Of a stretch of 13,323 bases of DNA, positions 5,660-13,323 are shown in pieces. The stretch comes from an uncultured archaeon (GTDB lineage: Archaea > Asgardarchaeota > Thorarchaeia > Thorarchaeales > Thorarchaeaceae): contig CAYHAA010000030.1 of the NCBI GenBank assembly GCA_964354495.1, positions 1 through 13,323 of the forward strand, given 5' to 3'. Positions within the stretch are counted from its first letter, which is position 1, and each line of letters opens with the position of its first letter. The translations under genes and the position numbers were made by a program. The notes beneath the pieces were generated by a model that had not been told where the DNA came from, did not search any database, and was given only the letters and a program-made list of their open reading frames with translations.

Positions 5660-5704
5660 TGACATCACTGTGTGCCAGCTATAACGACCATGCAAATCTA
5701 GGAC

Positions 5705-5941
5705 TTAGACATTGATCTCAATCGTACGTGTGGACTTCTCAGAGGCAGTCATCATCGGGAGATACTCATCTATGACCCCAAGCTCACGAGCATTGACAAG
5801 CCAGAGCTCTATTGCCTCTTTGAGATTGGCCAGAGCCTCATCTGCGGTATCACCTGCTGATGATACATCAATCTCGGGACATTTGGATACATAGGTCCCA
5901 TCTTCTTCCCATACAACAGCAGTGAATTTTACTTTCATCAT
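5705..5941 (-). CDS. hicB: HicB-family antitoxin (short, UPF0150-like)
   Basis: FTAVVWEEDGTYVSKCPEIDVSSAGDTADEALANLKEAIELWL; upstream of hicA. Confidence 0.9.
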   Translation of the reverse strand: MMKVKFTAVVWEEDGTYVSKCPEIDVSSAGDTADEALANLKEAIELWLVNARELGVIDEYLPMMTASEKSTRTIEINV

Positions 5942-6107
5942 CGTATACTACCATCCGAAGGTTATGAATTAAACTCTTTCATCAATGAGAATTCGGATTA
6001 ACTCTCTACGTTGTAGTTAGAAACGGTCAATATTAACTACTACCAACCAATGTATGATTCATGTTAAAACGAAGCAGGAGAGGTCTTCCATTAAGATAGT
6101 TAATAGA

Positions 6108-6260
6108 GAGTCCACTGAATTAGAAAAGCAAGTGAAAAATGAGAGGGTGGCTCAACAGCGAAGAGCACGAGCAAGTTCCCCACTTTGGCATCGGGCAACC
6201 TGACGATTGCACCGCGTTCAACGTCGTCCAAGGTCAGTGCTTCGCTTACATTCCGAAGAC
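6108..6260. repeat. Repeat copy R6
   Basis: gagtccact-N16-tgaaaaatgagagggtggctcaac...gcaccgcgtt; diverged but alignable through aaggtcagtgcttcgcttacattccgaag. Confidence 0.92.
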
Positions 6261-6510
6261 GGTTGCTGAAAATGCAGTCCTTTTTGTTGGAACACATCCA
6301 CACTCCCAAAGGCGTTACCATTCTTAGAGTGAAGGAAAGGATCTTTGGTATTATTGTTAGGTTTCTATCAAATTCCGAAGTGATTCAGACCTTTGCGTTA
6401 TGGGCTAGATAGAGCTTGACTTCAGGTGCGGAAAAAGTGGTTGTATTCTGATTGAAGATTGTAGTATCTATGGTCGATTGGACAAAATATGATTACTTCA
6501 TCCACAAATA

Positions 6511-6557
6511 ACATGTTTTATCCATGTCTTTATATCGTGTTGAATGGATATTCATGT
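6511..6557 (+). promoter_or_regulatory. Putative TA promoter flanked by an inverted repeat
   Basis: TTTATAT at 6529-6535 lies between ACATGttttATCCAT (6511-6525) and ATGGATattCATGT (6544-6557); 38 nt upstream of ATG 6573. Confidence 0.6.
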
Positions 6558-6572
6558 AGGGTGTTCATCTTG

Positions 6573-6812
6573 ATGGTTCGAGTTCGAATGGATGGCCAAC
6601 GACGCATCAGAATCCCAAGGAAGGCCGGAGTGGAAGGAGATACATTCCTCCTCCTCGCTCTTGGATCATATCACATTCTCTTTCCTGTTCCCTCTGAGAA
6701 ACCAGAACTGGATATCGAGGGACCAATAACAGAGCTTCTTTCACAGGCAGAAGTGGAGATTATTAGAGATGTGACCGAGAGATGGAGGAGGAAAGACCAA
6801 GATGCTGATTGA
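6573..6812 (+). CDS. AbrB-like antitoxin
   Basis: MVRVRMDGQRRIRIPRKAGVEGDTFLL resembles an AbrB N-terminus; start reassigned from 6489 to 6573 because the TATA box lies at 6529; overlaps the PIN gene. Confidence 0.72.
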   Translation: MVRVRMDGQRRIRIPRKAGVEGDTFLLLALGSYHILFPVPSEKPELDIEGPITELLSQAEVEIIRDVTERWRRKDQDAD

Positions 6813-7218
6813 GAATGACATGATCTTGGCATTCTATAAGAGAAACGACCACCTAAAACCACTTGCCACTCGTCTATTCTCAAGAATTGAACAGGGTGAT
6901 TTCGGTACAGTCGTTATACCTAGTGTCTTTTCGATTGAGCTCTACTATATCTTAAGATGCCTCACTGGTGTGACTCCAGTTCGAGATGTTATAAGCCACC
7001 TCATTACATTTCCCAATTTATCAATAATTCCTTCCACTATTGATCATCAATTGGCAGCCTTGTTCCTCCTAGAGAATTACCAACTAGAATCTATCTTTGA
7101 TGCAGTCTATGCCGCAGTATCACTCAGTGATGACAACCCAGACCACACGATCATCTCTACAGATCATATCTATGATAGAATTGAGGGCTTGACAAGGCTC
7201 GATCCCACCAGTATTTAG
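6802..7218 (+). CDS. vapC: PIN-domain (VapC-like) toxin
   Basis: MLIEND, SVFSIEL, IFDAVYAAV, IISTDHIYDRIEGL. Confidence 0.83.
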   Translation: MLIENDMILAFYKRNDHLKPLATRLFSRIEQGDFGTVVIPSVFSIELYYILRCLTGVTPVRDVISHLITFPNLSIIPSTIDHQLAALFLLENYQLESIFDAVYAAVSLSDDNPDHTIISTDHIYDRIEGLTRLDPTSI

Positions 7219-7227
7219 TGAACTGCA

Positions 7228-8466
7228 ATGAGGAATAAATCTCGCATGATGAACTTGATTACCTTCAGAGTATCCAGAGTCAGTTGCAGGCTCAGCGTTT
7301 CGCTGATACTGATCCTACTTGGATTTGCATACTCAGGTCTGCCTATGGCCTCTACCTATGTAGCAAAGATAGAGCCTGCACAGACTCAGACAACAACATG
7401 GATATCCCTTGAAACCGACTACCCAGAGGCAAAATTCTATGATGTTGAGTTCATCAATTCCTCTCACGGATGGGTCGTTGGATTATTGTACTCCAACACA
7501 TCTTCGGGCGGAATCATCCTTCACACAGAAACCAGTGGAGATACATGGGACACCCAACTTACTGATGATGCGCAAATATTCTATCAATTAGAAGTGGTGA
7601 ATGAACAAACAGCATGGGTGACCGGACTCGGTCGTCTCTACTTCACGAATGATAGTGGAGAGTCATGGTACACCTCTCTTGTGGGGAATAATCGCCTGTC
7701 TGGAATGAGCATGGTTGAGTTCCTCAATGAAACCCATGGATGGACTGCCACGATGCAGATACTATTCAGAACGACGGATGGTGGGCAGACATGGCAGAAT
7801 GTAACTGGTTGGACGTTCGATGACCATCCTTCGGACATGCAGTTCTTGACCGACTATGAAGTATGGGCGATTGGTTCTGACGGTATCTACCATAGTGACG
7901 ATGGCGCGGAAACTTGGGAGATGGTCTTTGATAAGGGGGGCTGGAGCCTATCGTTTCCAAACGAAGACGAAGGGTGGGCTGCGAGTCATAAATACTTCTT
8001 CCATATGAAGCAAGACCATACGTGGGAAGAGATTGTCATCCCCGGAAGACTTCCTTCATTTCGACTCTTATCTCCATATTGTTCAGATATACAGTTCATT
8101 GATGACGAACACGGATGGATTGTAAGCAGTGAGATTCCTATAATGCACACGCCGAACGGTGGAAGCAACTGGTATGAACAATCAGTTCCCGCGGATAGAG
8201 GCGGTCTCATGATGGCTGTCTGTTTCATTGATGAGTTGCACGGGTGGGTAGTGGGAAGCGATGGCTGTATTCTTAGAACCTCTACAGGAAACAATCTTGA
8301 CGCACTTCTCCTCTCCGGTCAAGAGGATCTTCTATTGATCGTTTTTGGAGCCACTGGAGTCGCAATCGTGCTGCCCGTCGGTCTGATTATTCTTCGTTGG
8401 AGAAAGCGGAGAATTCACGCCACTCAAACAGTTGGAGATTTGAAATTGGTTCCTGAGCTACCATGA
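7228..8466 (+). CDS. Membrane-anchored BNR/Asp-box (Ycf48-like) beta-propeller protein, paralogue 1
   Basis: N-terminal hydrophobic signal; repeated HGWVVG and TxDGGxTW units; C-terminal TM helix followed by RWRKRR. Confidence 0.85.
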   Translation: MRNKSRMMNLITFRVSRVSCRLSVSLILILLGFAYSGLPMASTYVAKIEPAQTQTTTWISLETDYPEAKFYDVEFINSSHGWVVGLLYSNTSSGGIILHTETSGDTWDTQLTDDAQIFYQLEVVNEQTAWVTGLGRLYFTNDSGESWYTSLVGNNRLSGMSMVEFLNETHGWTATMQILFRTTDGGQTWQNVTGWTFDDHPSDMQFLTDYEVWAIGSDGIYHSDDGAETWEMVFDKGGWSLSFPNEDEGWAASHKYFFHMKQDHTWEEIVIPGRLPSFRLLSPYCSDIQFIDDEHGWIVSSEIPIMHTPNGGSNWYEQSVPADRGGLMMAVCFIDELHGWVVGSDGCILRTSTGNNLDALLLSGQEDLLLIVFGATGVAIVLPVGLIILRWRKRRIHATQTVGDLKLVPELP

Positions 8467-8556
8467 CATGATTGTCTGTCTTGGTGTGATACTTGACATA
8501 GTAGCAAACTTGTTAGGGAGAACAGACAAGAAGCTACCACTCAGAAGATAATTAGA

Positions 8557-8815
8557 AAGTCCACTCATAATAATAGATGAATGAAAAATGAAAAGGGTGG
8601 CTCAACAGCGAACAGCAAGAGCAAGTTCTCCACTTTGGCATCGGGCAACCTGACGATTGCACCGCGTTCCCCGTCGAAGGCCCGTACCTCTCTTGCATTC
8701 CCGAAGGACTGCAAGACCAAGCTGCTTCTACCTCTATGAGATAGAAAACAGAGGAGGTGAGTGATGGAAGACGAGATGACTCTCGTCTTCTTCCATCCGC
8801 AGCTTCTGCTACGGA
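8557..8815. repeat. Repeat copy R7, the only complete copy in the window (about 260 nt)
   Basis: aagtccact-N16-tgaaaaatg + core + all right-module hairpins ending at gctacgga. Confidence 0.96.
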
Positions 8816-8908
8816 ATGAGCTCTTCAATTACAAATGCTGATGGGCTTGACTTGATCGCTCCAGAGTTCACAAAGTTCTCGTTCCAAAACAGCATCTTCA
8901 CTTTATTA

Positions 8909-9328
8909 TTAGTACACAAGTTGACAAAGACCTGCAAAGTCAGAATCAAATGTGGCCAGATATCCAACATCATTAGCATCAATGAATGATAGAATGCAAC
9001 AATCGGTGAAGCTCAGGGGTCTCTCAGGCCACCTGGCAAAGCGTTCCCATTTCTCCCACGCGAGGTCTAGGACTCTGGGTGTTATGTATTCAAACTTGAT
9101 GAACTCGGGAGTACCACGAACAAGCTCGTAAGCCTTTGTCACCGCACTCTTTTGGCGGGTATGTATCCAGAGGGTCGTGAGCACTTCGTCTAGGACATAG
9201 TCAATCGTGAGCCTCATTCCATACTCTTGGTCCTTAAGCTTGGTAAGAAGCTCTCTCGCTTTTGGATGATTTCGGTCTCGCGTGTTCAGCAATGCAATGA
9301 CGACATTACTATCTATGAGGACAGTCAT
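8909..9328 (-). CDS. vapC: PIN-domain (VapC-like) toxin
   Basis: VLIDSNVVIA, DYVLDEV, SFTDCCIL, LATFDSDF; 4-nt overlap with the upstream ORF. Confidence 0.9.
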   Translation of the reverse strand: MTVLIDSNVVIALLNTRDRNHPKARELLTKLKDQEYGMRLTIDYVLDEVLTTLWIHTRQKSAVTKAYELVRGTPEFIKFEYITPRVLDLAWEKWERFARWPERPLSFTDCCILSFIDANDVGYLATFDSDFAGLCQLVY

Positions 9329-9618
9329 GTAGAGTCACCGCCGTATACCACATCATCCACTCTCGATGAGAGTTCTTCACTCCCAGGTCCCAAGTCCTCT
9401 GCCAAGGAAAGGACTTTCTGAATGATATCATCACCCAGAGGATAGTCCATCAATCGCACCTCATTAACTATGAGATCATAGTTCTCAAGACCGATTCTGA
9501 ACACGATCTCTAGTATCTCCTTCTTTGTCAGACGCTTTCGTGTCTCCAGATATAGACGTGCCTGCAACTCTTCTAGGTCATCTTTAAGATCGAATTTCAC
9601 CGTGGACACTGATAACAC
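9325..9618 (-). CDS. Putative antitoxin (VapB position)
   Basis: 97 aa, acidic C-terminus, coupled to the PIN gene; minus-strand TTTATAT at 9650-9644 about 26 nt upstream of the GTG. Confidence 0.7.
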   Translation of the reverse strand: MLSVSTVKFDLKDDLEELQARLYLETRKRLTKKEILEIVFRIGLENYDLIVNEVRLMDYPLGDDIIQKVLSLAEDLGPGSEELSSRVDDVVYGGDST

Positions 9619-9687: not shown

Positions 9688-9875
9688 GAGTCCACTGAGT
9701 CTGATTGATGATTGAAAAATGAAAAAGGGTGGCTCAACAGTGAACAGCAAGAGCAAGTTCCCCACTTTGGCATCGGGCAACCTGACGATTGCACCGCGTT
9801 CCCCGTCGAAGGCCCGTACCTCTCTCACTGTCCGAAGACCGTGAGCCAAGCTGCTTCTACATCTATGAGATAGAA
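9688..9875. repeat. Repeat copy R8 (right module truncated after the second hairpin)
   Basis: gagtccact-N16-tgaaaaatg...ccgtacctctctcactgtccgaagaccgtgagccaagctgcttctacatctatgagatagaa. Confidence 0.95.
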
Positions 9876-10119
9876 GACACTATTCAGTGGGTGCTTAAAT
9901 TGAACGTACCAAGAATGAGGAGAATGAGCATTGCTTCAGCTCAACATGCCAACACGAACCCTAGCTTGTTCGGGAACCAATTGGCTTAAAACAAGGAGAG
10001 TCTATCACAAAACACACTGACTTCGTGATTAGGTATCGACTGTCTTGAATTGTATCACCAAAAGGAAACGCTGCGCATGCCTGTTCACGTAGTCAGATAT
10101 TCGTGGTTAGGAGTCGAAA

Positions 10120-11989: not shown

Positions 11990-13201
11990 ATGAGGAAAAC
12001 ATCGCACATGATGAACATGATTCCCCTCCGAACATTCAGACCCGGCTACAGCCTAAGTGTTGTGCTCCTGCTGACCCTACTTGGATTTGCATACGCAGGT
12101 CTGCCTATGGCTTCTACCTATGCAGCAAACATAGAGCCTGCACAGACTCAGACAACAACATGGATATCCCTTGAGAACGATTACCCAGAGGCTATATTTC
12201 GTGATGTCGAGTTCATCAATTCCTCTCACGGATGGGTAGTGGCAGGTGGTATTATCCTTCACACAGAAGACGGTGGAGACTCCTGGGAAACCCAGCTCGC
12301 TGATGATTCACAGGCATTCCGACAGCTAGAAGTAGTGAATGAACGAACAGTATGGGTGACTGGGCTCGGTTGTCTCTACTTCACGAACGATAGTGGAGAG
12401 TCATGGCATACCTCAGTTGCTTACAGTAGTCTGTCCACTATGAGTATGGTGGAGTTCTTCAATGAAACCCATGGATGGACTGCTACAATGCAGATGCTGT
12501 TCAAAACGACTGACGGTGGGCAAACCTGGCAGAATGTGACTGGTTGGACGTTCGACGATCATCCTAAGGACATGCAGTTCTTGAATGAGTATGAAGTATG
12601 GGCGATTGGCTATGACGGTGTCTACCATAGCGATGATGGCGCGGAGACCTGGGAGAAGGTCTTTGATAAGGGAGGCTGGAGCCTATCCTTTCCGAACCAA
12701 GACGAAGGGTGGGCCATCAGTGATGGCTACCTCTTCCACATGGAGCAAGACCATACGTGGGAGGAGCTGGCTGTTCCCGGAAGACTTCCTTCATTTCGGC
12801 TCACCCCTCCATATTCTTCAGATATACAGTTCATTGACGACCAGCACGGATGGATAGTAGGCGGTGAGATCCCTGTAATGCACACGCCAAATGGCGGAAG
12901 CAACTGGTATCAACAATCAGTTCCTGCTGACATAGGGGAACGTATGATGGCTGTCTGTTTCGTTGATGAGGTACATGGGTGGGTAGTGGGATACGATGGC
13001 TGTATTCTCAGAACCTCTACAGGAGGCAATCTTGATGCACTTCTCCTCTCCGGTCAAGAGGACCTTCTACTGATCGCTCTTGGAACCGCTGGAATAGCAA
13101 TCGCACTCACTATTGGTATCCTTGGTCTTCGTTGGAGAAGACGAAGGATTCGCGCGACTCACACAGGTATTGATTTAAAATCGACTCCGGAGATACTCTA
13201 G
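11990..13201 (+). CDS. Membrane-anchored BNR/Asp-box (Ycf48-like) protein, paralogue 2
   Basis: Colinear with 7228-8466; start reassigned to ATG 11990 (MRKTSHMMNMI vs MRNKSRMMNLI). Confidence 0.87.
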   Translation: MRKTSHMMNMIPLRTFRPGYSLSVVLLLTLLGFAYAGLPMASTYAANIEPAQTQTTTWISLENDYPEAIFRDVEFINSSHGWVVAGGIILHTEDGGDSWETQLADDSQAFRQLEVVNERTVWVTGLGCLYFTNDSGESWHTSVAYSSLSTMSMVEFFNETHGWTATMQMLFKTTDGGQTWQNVTGWTFDDHPKDMQFLNEYEVWAIGYDGVYHSDDGAETWEKVFDKGGWSLSFPNQDEGWAISDGYLFHMEQDHTWEELAVPGRLPSFRLTPPYSSDIQFIDDQHGWIVGGEIPVMHTPNGGSNWYQQSVPADIGERMMAVCFVDEVHGWVVGYDGCILRTSTGGNLDALLLSGQEDLLLIALGTAGIAIALTIGILGLRWRRRRIRATHTGIDLKSTPEIL

Positions 13202-13291
13202 CATTTTCATCGATTATGACGCGATGTTTGGCGAGGTACGAGATCTTTTGGAGAGAATCAAGAAAAGACTCCCTCTCAGATGACAAATAGA

Positions 13292-13323
13292 GAGTCCTCT
13301 AACAAGAATGGATGATTGAAAAA
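13292..13323. repeat. Start of repeat copy R9 (cut by window edge)
   Basis: gagtcctct-aacaagaatggatgat(16 nt)-tgaaaaa has the same motif and spacing as R1/R6/R7/R8. Confidence 0.75.

Follow-up and report, generated by a model that had tools for sequence, protein, structure and literature searches.

We found that repeat copy R7, on the minus strand of the window, partially duplicates the 16S rRNA gene end and its 3' external transcribed spacer. The duplicated 16S end and the module to its left most probably form an att-like arm (we put the probability at about 0.8) that closes one cassette in a row of cassettes behind the only 16S gene of the genome. This reading is based on the homology to the gene end, the pairing with the 16S leader, the position in the array, the movement of cassettes, the junctions in the core, and the relaxed constraint on the copies. 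The window is the whole 13.3-kb contig C30 from a 3.3-Mb genome in 51 contigs with an estimated completeness of 97.7%. The initial annotation had described the repeat as a structured ncRNA of roughly 230 nt that could not be assigned to a family. This part of the annotation was not borne out: the RNA element itself is already known as rRNA and pre-rRNA sequence, and no new ncRNA class is involved.

The structural claims of the initial annotation, by comparison, were confirmed. The four first hairpins of the UUCG type were located on the minus strand at 8692-8715 (R7), 54-77 (R0), 9824-9845 (R8), and 2067-2088 (R2). The further hairpins claimed for the same strand were found at 8726-8746 (loop ATA), 8761-8798 (GATGGA...TCCATC), and 8796-8815 (loop AGAA). 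The minus strand of 8540-8830 folds with -111.3 kcal/mol (z -5.6), and none of 200 shuffled sequences folded as well; the plus strand folds less well (-86 kcal/mol, z -2.2). G-U pairs of the RNA type also agree with the proposed strand, as evidenced by columns 81/91 and 82/90, which are compatible with the minus strand only. To score covariation, 21 copies from 12 genomes were aligned and the four hairpins were treated as five helices. The observed score was matched by none of 500 shuffles, so the claimed covariation is real. Standard pairs occupied 93.4% of the cells, compared with 36-56% when the partners were slid by 1-3 columns, and the UUCG hairpin had both-side (compensatory) changes at 8 of its 9 pairs. 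We also observed that AAGCUGC, the 3' strand of helix 45 (see below), is perfectly complementary to GCAGCUU just after the first spacer hairpin. This alternative pairing is invariant in 21/21 copies (A1 columns 16-22 with 97-103; approximately 8794-8800 with 8719-8725 in the window) and might represent a conformational switch of the pre-rRNA.

The initial annotation had named a confident Rfam match to a known family as a result that would count against it. Such a match was obtained indirectly: the window itself had none, but the 97-98% identical paralogue on contig C31 matched the archaeal SSU rRNA family RF01959 (85 bits, E 1e-22). A search of the window at gathering thresholds, and of 8480-8920 at E<=10, returned nothing relevant, because R7 carries too little 16S sequence to score. 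The identification came through relatives, in which the archaeal SSU matches of Rfam reach, or stop just short of, the hairpin TCCGTAGC-GGAA-GCTGCGGA (L032 9001-10532 and L035 9208-10795). In the host, the minus strand of C31 (L002) from 12982 to 13317 is the 3' part of the 16S gene and corresponds to RF01959 model positions 1232-1478. The SSU_rRNA_archaea alignment of this region places the hairpin at model positions of approximately 1447-1466, which is helix 45. Over 239 nt, R7 and the real gene end with its downstream sequence on C31 share 98% identity; for the right module of R7 alone, the identity with the real end is 96.8%.

The right module can thus be read feature by feature on the minus strand. 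The segment 8752-8815 copies the last 64 bases of the 16S rRNA. It comprises a copy of helix 45 (8796-8815), in which the 8-bp stem is kept and the loop is AGAA, although all five aligned real copies have GGAA; a 31-nt hairpin insert (8761-8791) between GGAUGGA and UCACCUCCU of the 16S tail, which corresponds to the GATGGA...TCCATC hairpin of the initial annotation; and the anti-Shine-Dalgarno 3' terminus UCACCUCCU itself (8752-8760), which reads GGAGGTGA on the plus strand. In the segment 8692-8751, it is the 16S 3' spacer (trailer) whose first two hairpins are duplicated. Hairpin 1 (8726-8746) lies just after CCUCCU in real 16S genes, and hairpin 2 (8692-8715), which has the cUUCGg loop, is also found after CCUCCU in real 16S genes. 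Many genera in the family have both spacer hairpins behind their real 16S genes, with stem sequences that differ by species. R7 is not contiguous with a 16S body, and a PIN gene lies upstream in place of helix 44. As the window also lacks an Rfam match, R7 is a fragment copy and not an rRNA gene. It resembles the SSU rRNA 3' end (RF01959) in the stem sequence and pairing of helix 45 and in the GAUCACCUCCU-type tail; it differs in being a fragment approximately 17 kb from the gene, behind a toxin gene and with AGAA in place of the GNRA-type loop GGAA. By its established homology, the right module duplicates the 16S 3' end and the start of the 3' spacer and is no longer ribosomal.

These results bear on the proposal that the repeat is an independent functional ncRNA of approximately 230 nt with a role of its own, such as a ribozyme or a guide. 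The strong minus-strand fold (z -5.6), the genuine covariation, and the lack of an Rfam match in the window would fit this proposal. However, the homology to the 16S end and spacer accounts for every structural element, the right module is missing from most copies, and the cassette copies are mutated at positions that are invariant in real genes. Given the 16S homology, the proposal is largely refuted, and we consider it very improbable. An origin as a TnpB omega-RNA, an IS200/IS605 end, or a group II intron was also rejected, since no such gene adjoins R7 and the 16S homology explains the structure.

The 31-nt insert links R7 to the real gene and also varies between relatives. R7 and the real 16S gene of the host have the same 31-nt insert between GGAUGGA and the anti-Shine-Dalgarno sequence UCACCUCCU. 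The real 16S genes with the insert are those of the host and of G002, G014, G015, G028, G029, G067, G072, G080, G081, and G082; those of G012, G017, G030, G035, G063, G064, G076, G077, G078, G084, and G086 lack it, so that its presence varies even inside one genus. In G012 and G017, the cassette arms bear the insert but the real 16S ends of the same genomes do not. When the insert was considered as a BHB intron, the sole 31-nt deletion that restores the canonical tail put the 5' junction inside a helix. The real 16S gene of the host has hairpin inserts of 29-31 nt at two sites, GTAA^CAAGG and GGAUGGA^UCACC (L002 12961-12991 and 13020-13050, minus strand). Both are present or absent by species within one genus, and the insert at GTAA^CAAGG covaries between species. 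The full-length cassette arms start beside this insertion point. In addition, 16S genes of 2.3-2.4 kb were observed in three relatives (G035:C2:589938-592348, G080:C10:124412-126689, and G014:C73:13812-16104); this length implies inserts of approximately 0.8-0.9 kb, which are probably introns.

The left module (8582-8691, minus strand) consists of the 3' strand of a processing stem, a core, and T-runs that are the likely terminator. The 5' part of the host 16S gene and its leader are located on contig C15, with the leader running from 758 to 509. Cofolding of the leader with the R7 arm produced the paired blocks GGCUCAACAGUG/CGCUGUUGAGCC, CAAGGGUAAG/CUUGCUCUUG, UCUCUGCU/AGUGGAGA, CCCCGUU/GACGGGG, and CCUGUACUUU/GAGGUACGGG. 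Within the first of these, leader GGCUCAACAGUG and the invariant core of the repeat, CGCUGUUGAGCC, form a perfect 12-bp helix. The C15 leader formed the same seven helices whether it was cofolded with the real trailer or with the R7 arm, and the pairing of leader and trailer was likewise obtained in G012, G029, and G030. Since the leader pairs block by block with the arm, the left module can be identified with the 3' strand of the pre-16S processing stem, which on the basis of the cofold occupies 8597-8691 (minus strand) and has one internal hairpin. Such a stem is a standard archaeal feature (PMC7038931, PMC10351888), and the known stem and 3' spacer are alike in that the spacer strand pairs with the 5' leader and T-runs come next (PMC7038931, PMC10351888).

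The invariant core GCTGTTGAGCCACCC (8595-8609, minus strand) is conserved in 36/36 junctions compared. It is followed by the T-runs TTTTCATTTTTCA (8582-8594, minus strand), and the cassette junctions lie in this stretch of core and T-runs, at the base of the processing stem. The T-runs are likely the terminator of the 16S transcript, and those behind each cassette may serve as a terminator for the cassette genes. In 16S orientation, the T-runs are the first part of each cassette. We also observed that, at 8557-8581 and at its counterpart after every core, approximately 16 variable nucleotides follow the T-runs and then a semi-conserved box, GAGTGGAYTCT, which is also found behind several real 16S trailers. 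A hairpin formed by the core (GAGCCAC) and this downstream box was considered as an analogue of attC and rejected, since a different core, as in G077, is not accompanied by a matching change in the box.

The position of the repeat in the genome was then considered. The repeat is approximately 250-275 nt long and occurs in about 16 copies, at the end of C17, all along C30, and on C31, with identical orientation in all of them. C17 and C30 share an exact overlap of 55 nt within a repeat, indicating one locus that was split by the assembler; C30 and C31 are plausible neighbours in the array. The array spans at least 30 kb, from the 16S gene to a conserved flank. The cassettes between repeats are 0.5-3 kb long, with the exception of one stretch of approximately 9 kb on C31 that has no repeat. 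The cargo genes lie in either orientation and include toxin-antitoxin pairs (PIN/VapB, ParE, HicAB, and MazE-PIN), an MvaI/BcnI restriction enzyme with a methylase, an REase-ARP nuclease, a SAM methyltransferase, an MFS transporter, BNR proteins, a peptidase, a GNAT acetyltransferase, and further genes. Among the larger ORFs tested on the C17 tail, C30, and C31, none had a Pfam recombinase domain and several had no Pfam match at all; the ORFs of 308 and 446 aa at the end of the array matched no Pfam family. Among the sequencing runs compared, no RNA run matched, which does not bear on expression either way, and the DNA runs all share no more than 0.16 of the sampled words.

The cassette closed by R7 contains a PIN toxin gene (8909-9328, minus strand; Pfam PIN domain, E 1.5e-10) and an upstream gene for a 97-aa partner (9325-9618, minus strand). 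An orthologous PIN cassette in G027 is closed by an arm of the same kind. Most repeat copies have no right module, and the arms are often truncated. Three further arms on the minus strand of the window illustrate the range. R0 (6-176) is a full-length arm with helix 45 at 157-176, and its left part continues on C17. The R2 arm (2044-2186) has helix 45 at 2167-2186 with the loop GGUG. R8 (9689-9879) is shorter: spacer hairpin 1 already lies outside this arm, which includes the UUCG hairpin at 9824-9845.

We searched relatives for the repeat and obtained matches in 30 of 36 genomes of the same family and in none of 24 genomes outside it. Arrays of the core begin directly behind the 16S gene in the host and in G012, G017, G029, G077, and G082. 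In G012, the entire array is on one contig, from the 16S gene to the same flank genes as those of the host array. This far flank, common to the host and G012, comprises a 308-aa ORF, an MBL-fold gene, and POR genes; the MBL-fold gene also lies beside the arrays of G017 and G027. The cassettes common to the host and G012 are ordered differently. A cassette that has moved keeps the arm on its 16S-distal side, and the arm in front of it changes. Where the same cassettes stand in different contexts in the two genomes, the breakpoints fall within the 13-nt core TGTTGAGCCACCC. The core and T-runs are common to all copies, and the length of the similarity upstream of them varies by copy. The full-length arms of unrelated cassettes start within approximately 20 nt of the start of helix 45, and the 16S body upstream of helix 45 is in no repeat copy. 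A simple model in which the length of homology is arbitrary leaves this common starting point unexplained. Beyond the gene, many 16S contigs of the family continue for less than 150 nt, as would be expected if assemblies break at the repeated trailer.

Constraint was compared between real and cassette copies. In the real copies, helix 45 and hairpin 1 were 100% paired and the GGAA loop was present in 5/5. In the cassette copies, pairing was 87% in helix 45, 96% in hairpin 1, and 82% in hairpin 2, and the universally conserved helix-45 loop was mutated in 5 of 16 copies, including R7 (AGAA) and R2 (GGUG). These comparisons indicate that the cassette copies are under relaxed constraint. The 82-99% pairing still seen in them possibly reflects some remaining constraint or recent gene conversion. 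We suggest that the compensatory changes were selected in real pre-rRNAs and inherited by the copies, rather than selected there, and that the hairpins, tetraloops, and G-U pairs likewise come from the pre-rRNA of various donor lineages. This is a general caution, as the covariation of a repeat can come from a functional parent gene and not from selection on the copies.

The lineage of the arms was also informative. R2 shares 80% identity with the host's real 16S end and 87% with that of the congener G002. In a tree of the module, in which the shortness of the alignment limits the support, real and cassette copies of different genomes are mixed. Most simply, the arms can be read as captured states of the real 16S ends of several different lineages. 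A related observation was made in a real gene: the 16S end of the congener G012 (L024, G012:C81 8405-8570) has spacer hairpins like those of another genus (G030), and its processing strand is of the host type despite these hairpins, which makes this gene end a mosaic.

Passive debris could also leave gene-end copies of this kind, if the cassettes were immobile and the rRNA gene end had been duplicated locally time after time, with the copies then decaying. The near identity of R7 with the real end and the decay seen in the copies are what such an origin would predict. Nevertheless, no copy has 16S sequence upstream of helix 45, the arms differ in lineage from the real gene of the host, the order and content of cassettes vary between congeners with breakpoints at the core, and the cargo genes are unrelated and typical of mobile DNA. 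We therefore regard debris as a very unlikely origin.

The copies might instead have been exapted. As 3' UTRs of the cassettes, they could act in trans as an anti-Shine-Dalgarno sponge, as a competitor for the 16S leader, or as bait for biogenesis factors of helix 45 and the 3' end. The R7 arm and the real trailer can pair equally well with the 16S leader, the cassette copies show almost no variation in the anti-Shine-Dalgarno sequence or in the 3' strand of helix 45, and toxin-antitoxin genes lie upstream on the same strand. Set against this, the helix-45 loop or the anti-Shine-Dalgarno sequence is mutated in several copies, and most arms are truncated and have no anti-Shine-Dalgarno or helix-45 parts. 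A decoy or regulatory role is accordingly unlikely, if less so than debris.

The arrangement of the array also raised the question of integrons. If the repeats were attC sites, the array would be a CALIN of the type reported in Asgard archaea and would be recombined by IntI. The repeats lie in the same orientation between small cassettes rich in toxin-antitoxin genes, the sequence GTTGAGC within the core fits a GTTRRRY box, and integrons/CALINs are reported to be enriched in Asgard genomes (PMC9668308). In an attC site, complementary R'' (RYYYAAC) and R' (GTTRRRY) boxes close an imperfect palindrome of 50-150 nt. However, neither strand of the window contains such a complementary pair at a spacing of 45-160 nt, the GTT box is on the 5' arm of the only local palindrome, and the unit is approximately 250 nt long and homologous to pre-rRNA. 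Furthermore, IntI (TIGR02249) had 0 matches in the 97.7%-complete, 51-contig genome, as did the tyrosine recombinase domain (PF00589), even of the Xer type, although the control search for the latter matched 14/14 reference genomes. With neither an R''/R' palindrome nor IntI, identity with attC was rejected, and we consider it very unlikely.

The preferred reading is thus that of an att-like arm, for which we propose the following mechanism. Cassettes would enter or be exchanged by recombination of the arm or core with the 16S trailer or with another arm. Each cassette would bring a copy of the gene end, so that the rRNA gene stays whole and the displaced copy is left behind. No circular forms, empty sites, or variants within the population were seen. 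The arm would likely also provide a terminator that shields the cassette genes from rRNA read-through. The agent of recombination could be homologous recombination or an unrecognised site-specific recombinase. Homologous recombination on conserved islands (helix 45 with the tail, and the core) is a viable alternative, and would also explain the mosaic 16S 3' ends and spacers in the genus. The only two serine recombinases in the genome, of 200 aa, are on C22 and C24 and have no link to the array; neither Cas1 (PF01867) nor the Y1 transposase (PF01797) was matched anywhere in the 97.7%-complete genome. A bolder version, in which the arms are the recombination sites of an undescribed, integrase-independent, integron-like gene-capture system of Thorarchaeota-type Asgard archaea on the 16S gene that swaps the last approximately 60 nt and the spacer across species, is possible, with the odds somewhat against it. 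Such capture would also exchange the 31-nt insert beside the anti-Shine-Dalgarno sequence between species, and its driver may be homologous recombination following RNA-guided (TnpB) cleavage.

C31 (L002) contains a gene for a 580-aa TnpB-like protein (5934-7676, minus strand), which has approximately seven paralogues in the genome. The non-coding stretch downstream of it (5700-5760) ends in GGGGATCACCTCCTACGTTTCT, which holds the canonical 16S terminus GGATCACCTCCT (12/12) and the start of the spacer. In G015 and G030, the orthologous loci show conservation of this stretch, which overlaps a hairpin with the Shine-Dalgarno sequence of the next gene. It could be a guide aimed at the 16S end that has no insert. 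A paralogue of the TnpB-like gene on C27 adjoins a putative tRNA gene end.

The context is out of the ordinary, as a family-wide row of mobile cassettes probably lands at the end of a single 16S gene. In the literature searched for 16S-linked cassette arrays in Asgard archaea, we found no paper that describes the 16S gene end as both anchor and repeat. If the reading is true, it would provide a route of gene flow, including defence and toxin-antitoxin genes, in Asgard archaea devoid of classical integrases. It would also explain the discordant 16S 3' ends and spacers within a genus, and why the 16S contigs of these MAGs break at this point.

Long rows of cassettes with toxin-antitoxin and defence genes are known from sedentary chromosomal integrons and CALINs, including archaeal ones (Ghaly et al. 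2022, PMC9668308). The array resembles these in its structured repeats, which point one way, and in cassettes that are shuffled between relatives. It differs from them (PMC9668308) in that it has no attC architecture and no IntI, its anchor is an rRNA trailer and not attI, and its cargo lies in both orientations. A further comparison may be drawn with the direct att repeats that arise when integrative elements accrete in tandem at the 3' ends of tRNA and tmRNA genes, including integrase-less CIME-like elements, and with SCC at the 3' end of rlmH. In these systems, as here, the target gene is rebuilt and its 3' end is what the repeats copy, the elements are stacked one way, and the length of the gene end varies; the 16S gene of the host is likewise intact and the repeat copies its 3' end. 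Unlike in those systems, the array described here is in a genome without a detectable tyrosine recombinase, it consists of at least 16 stacked units of 0.5-3 kb without an integrase, and its target is the end of a 16S gene together with the spacer.
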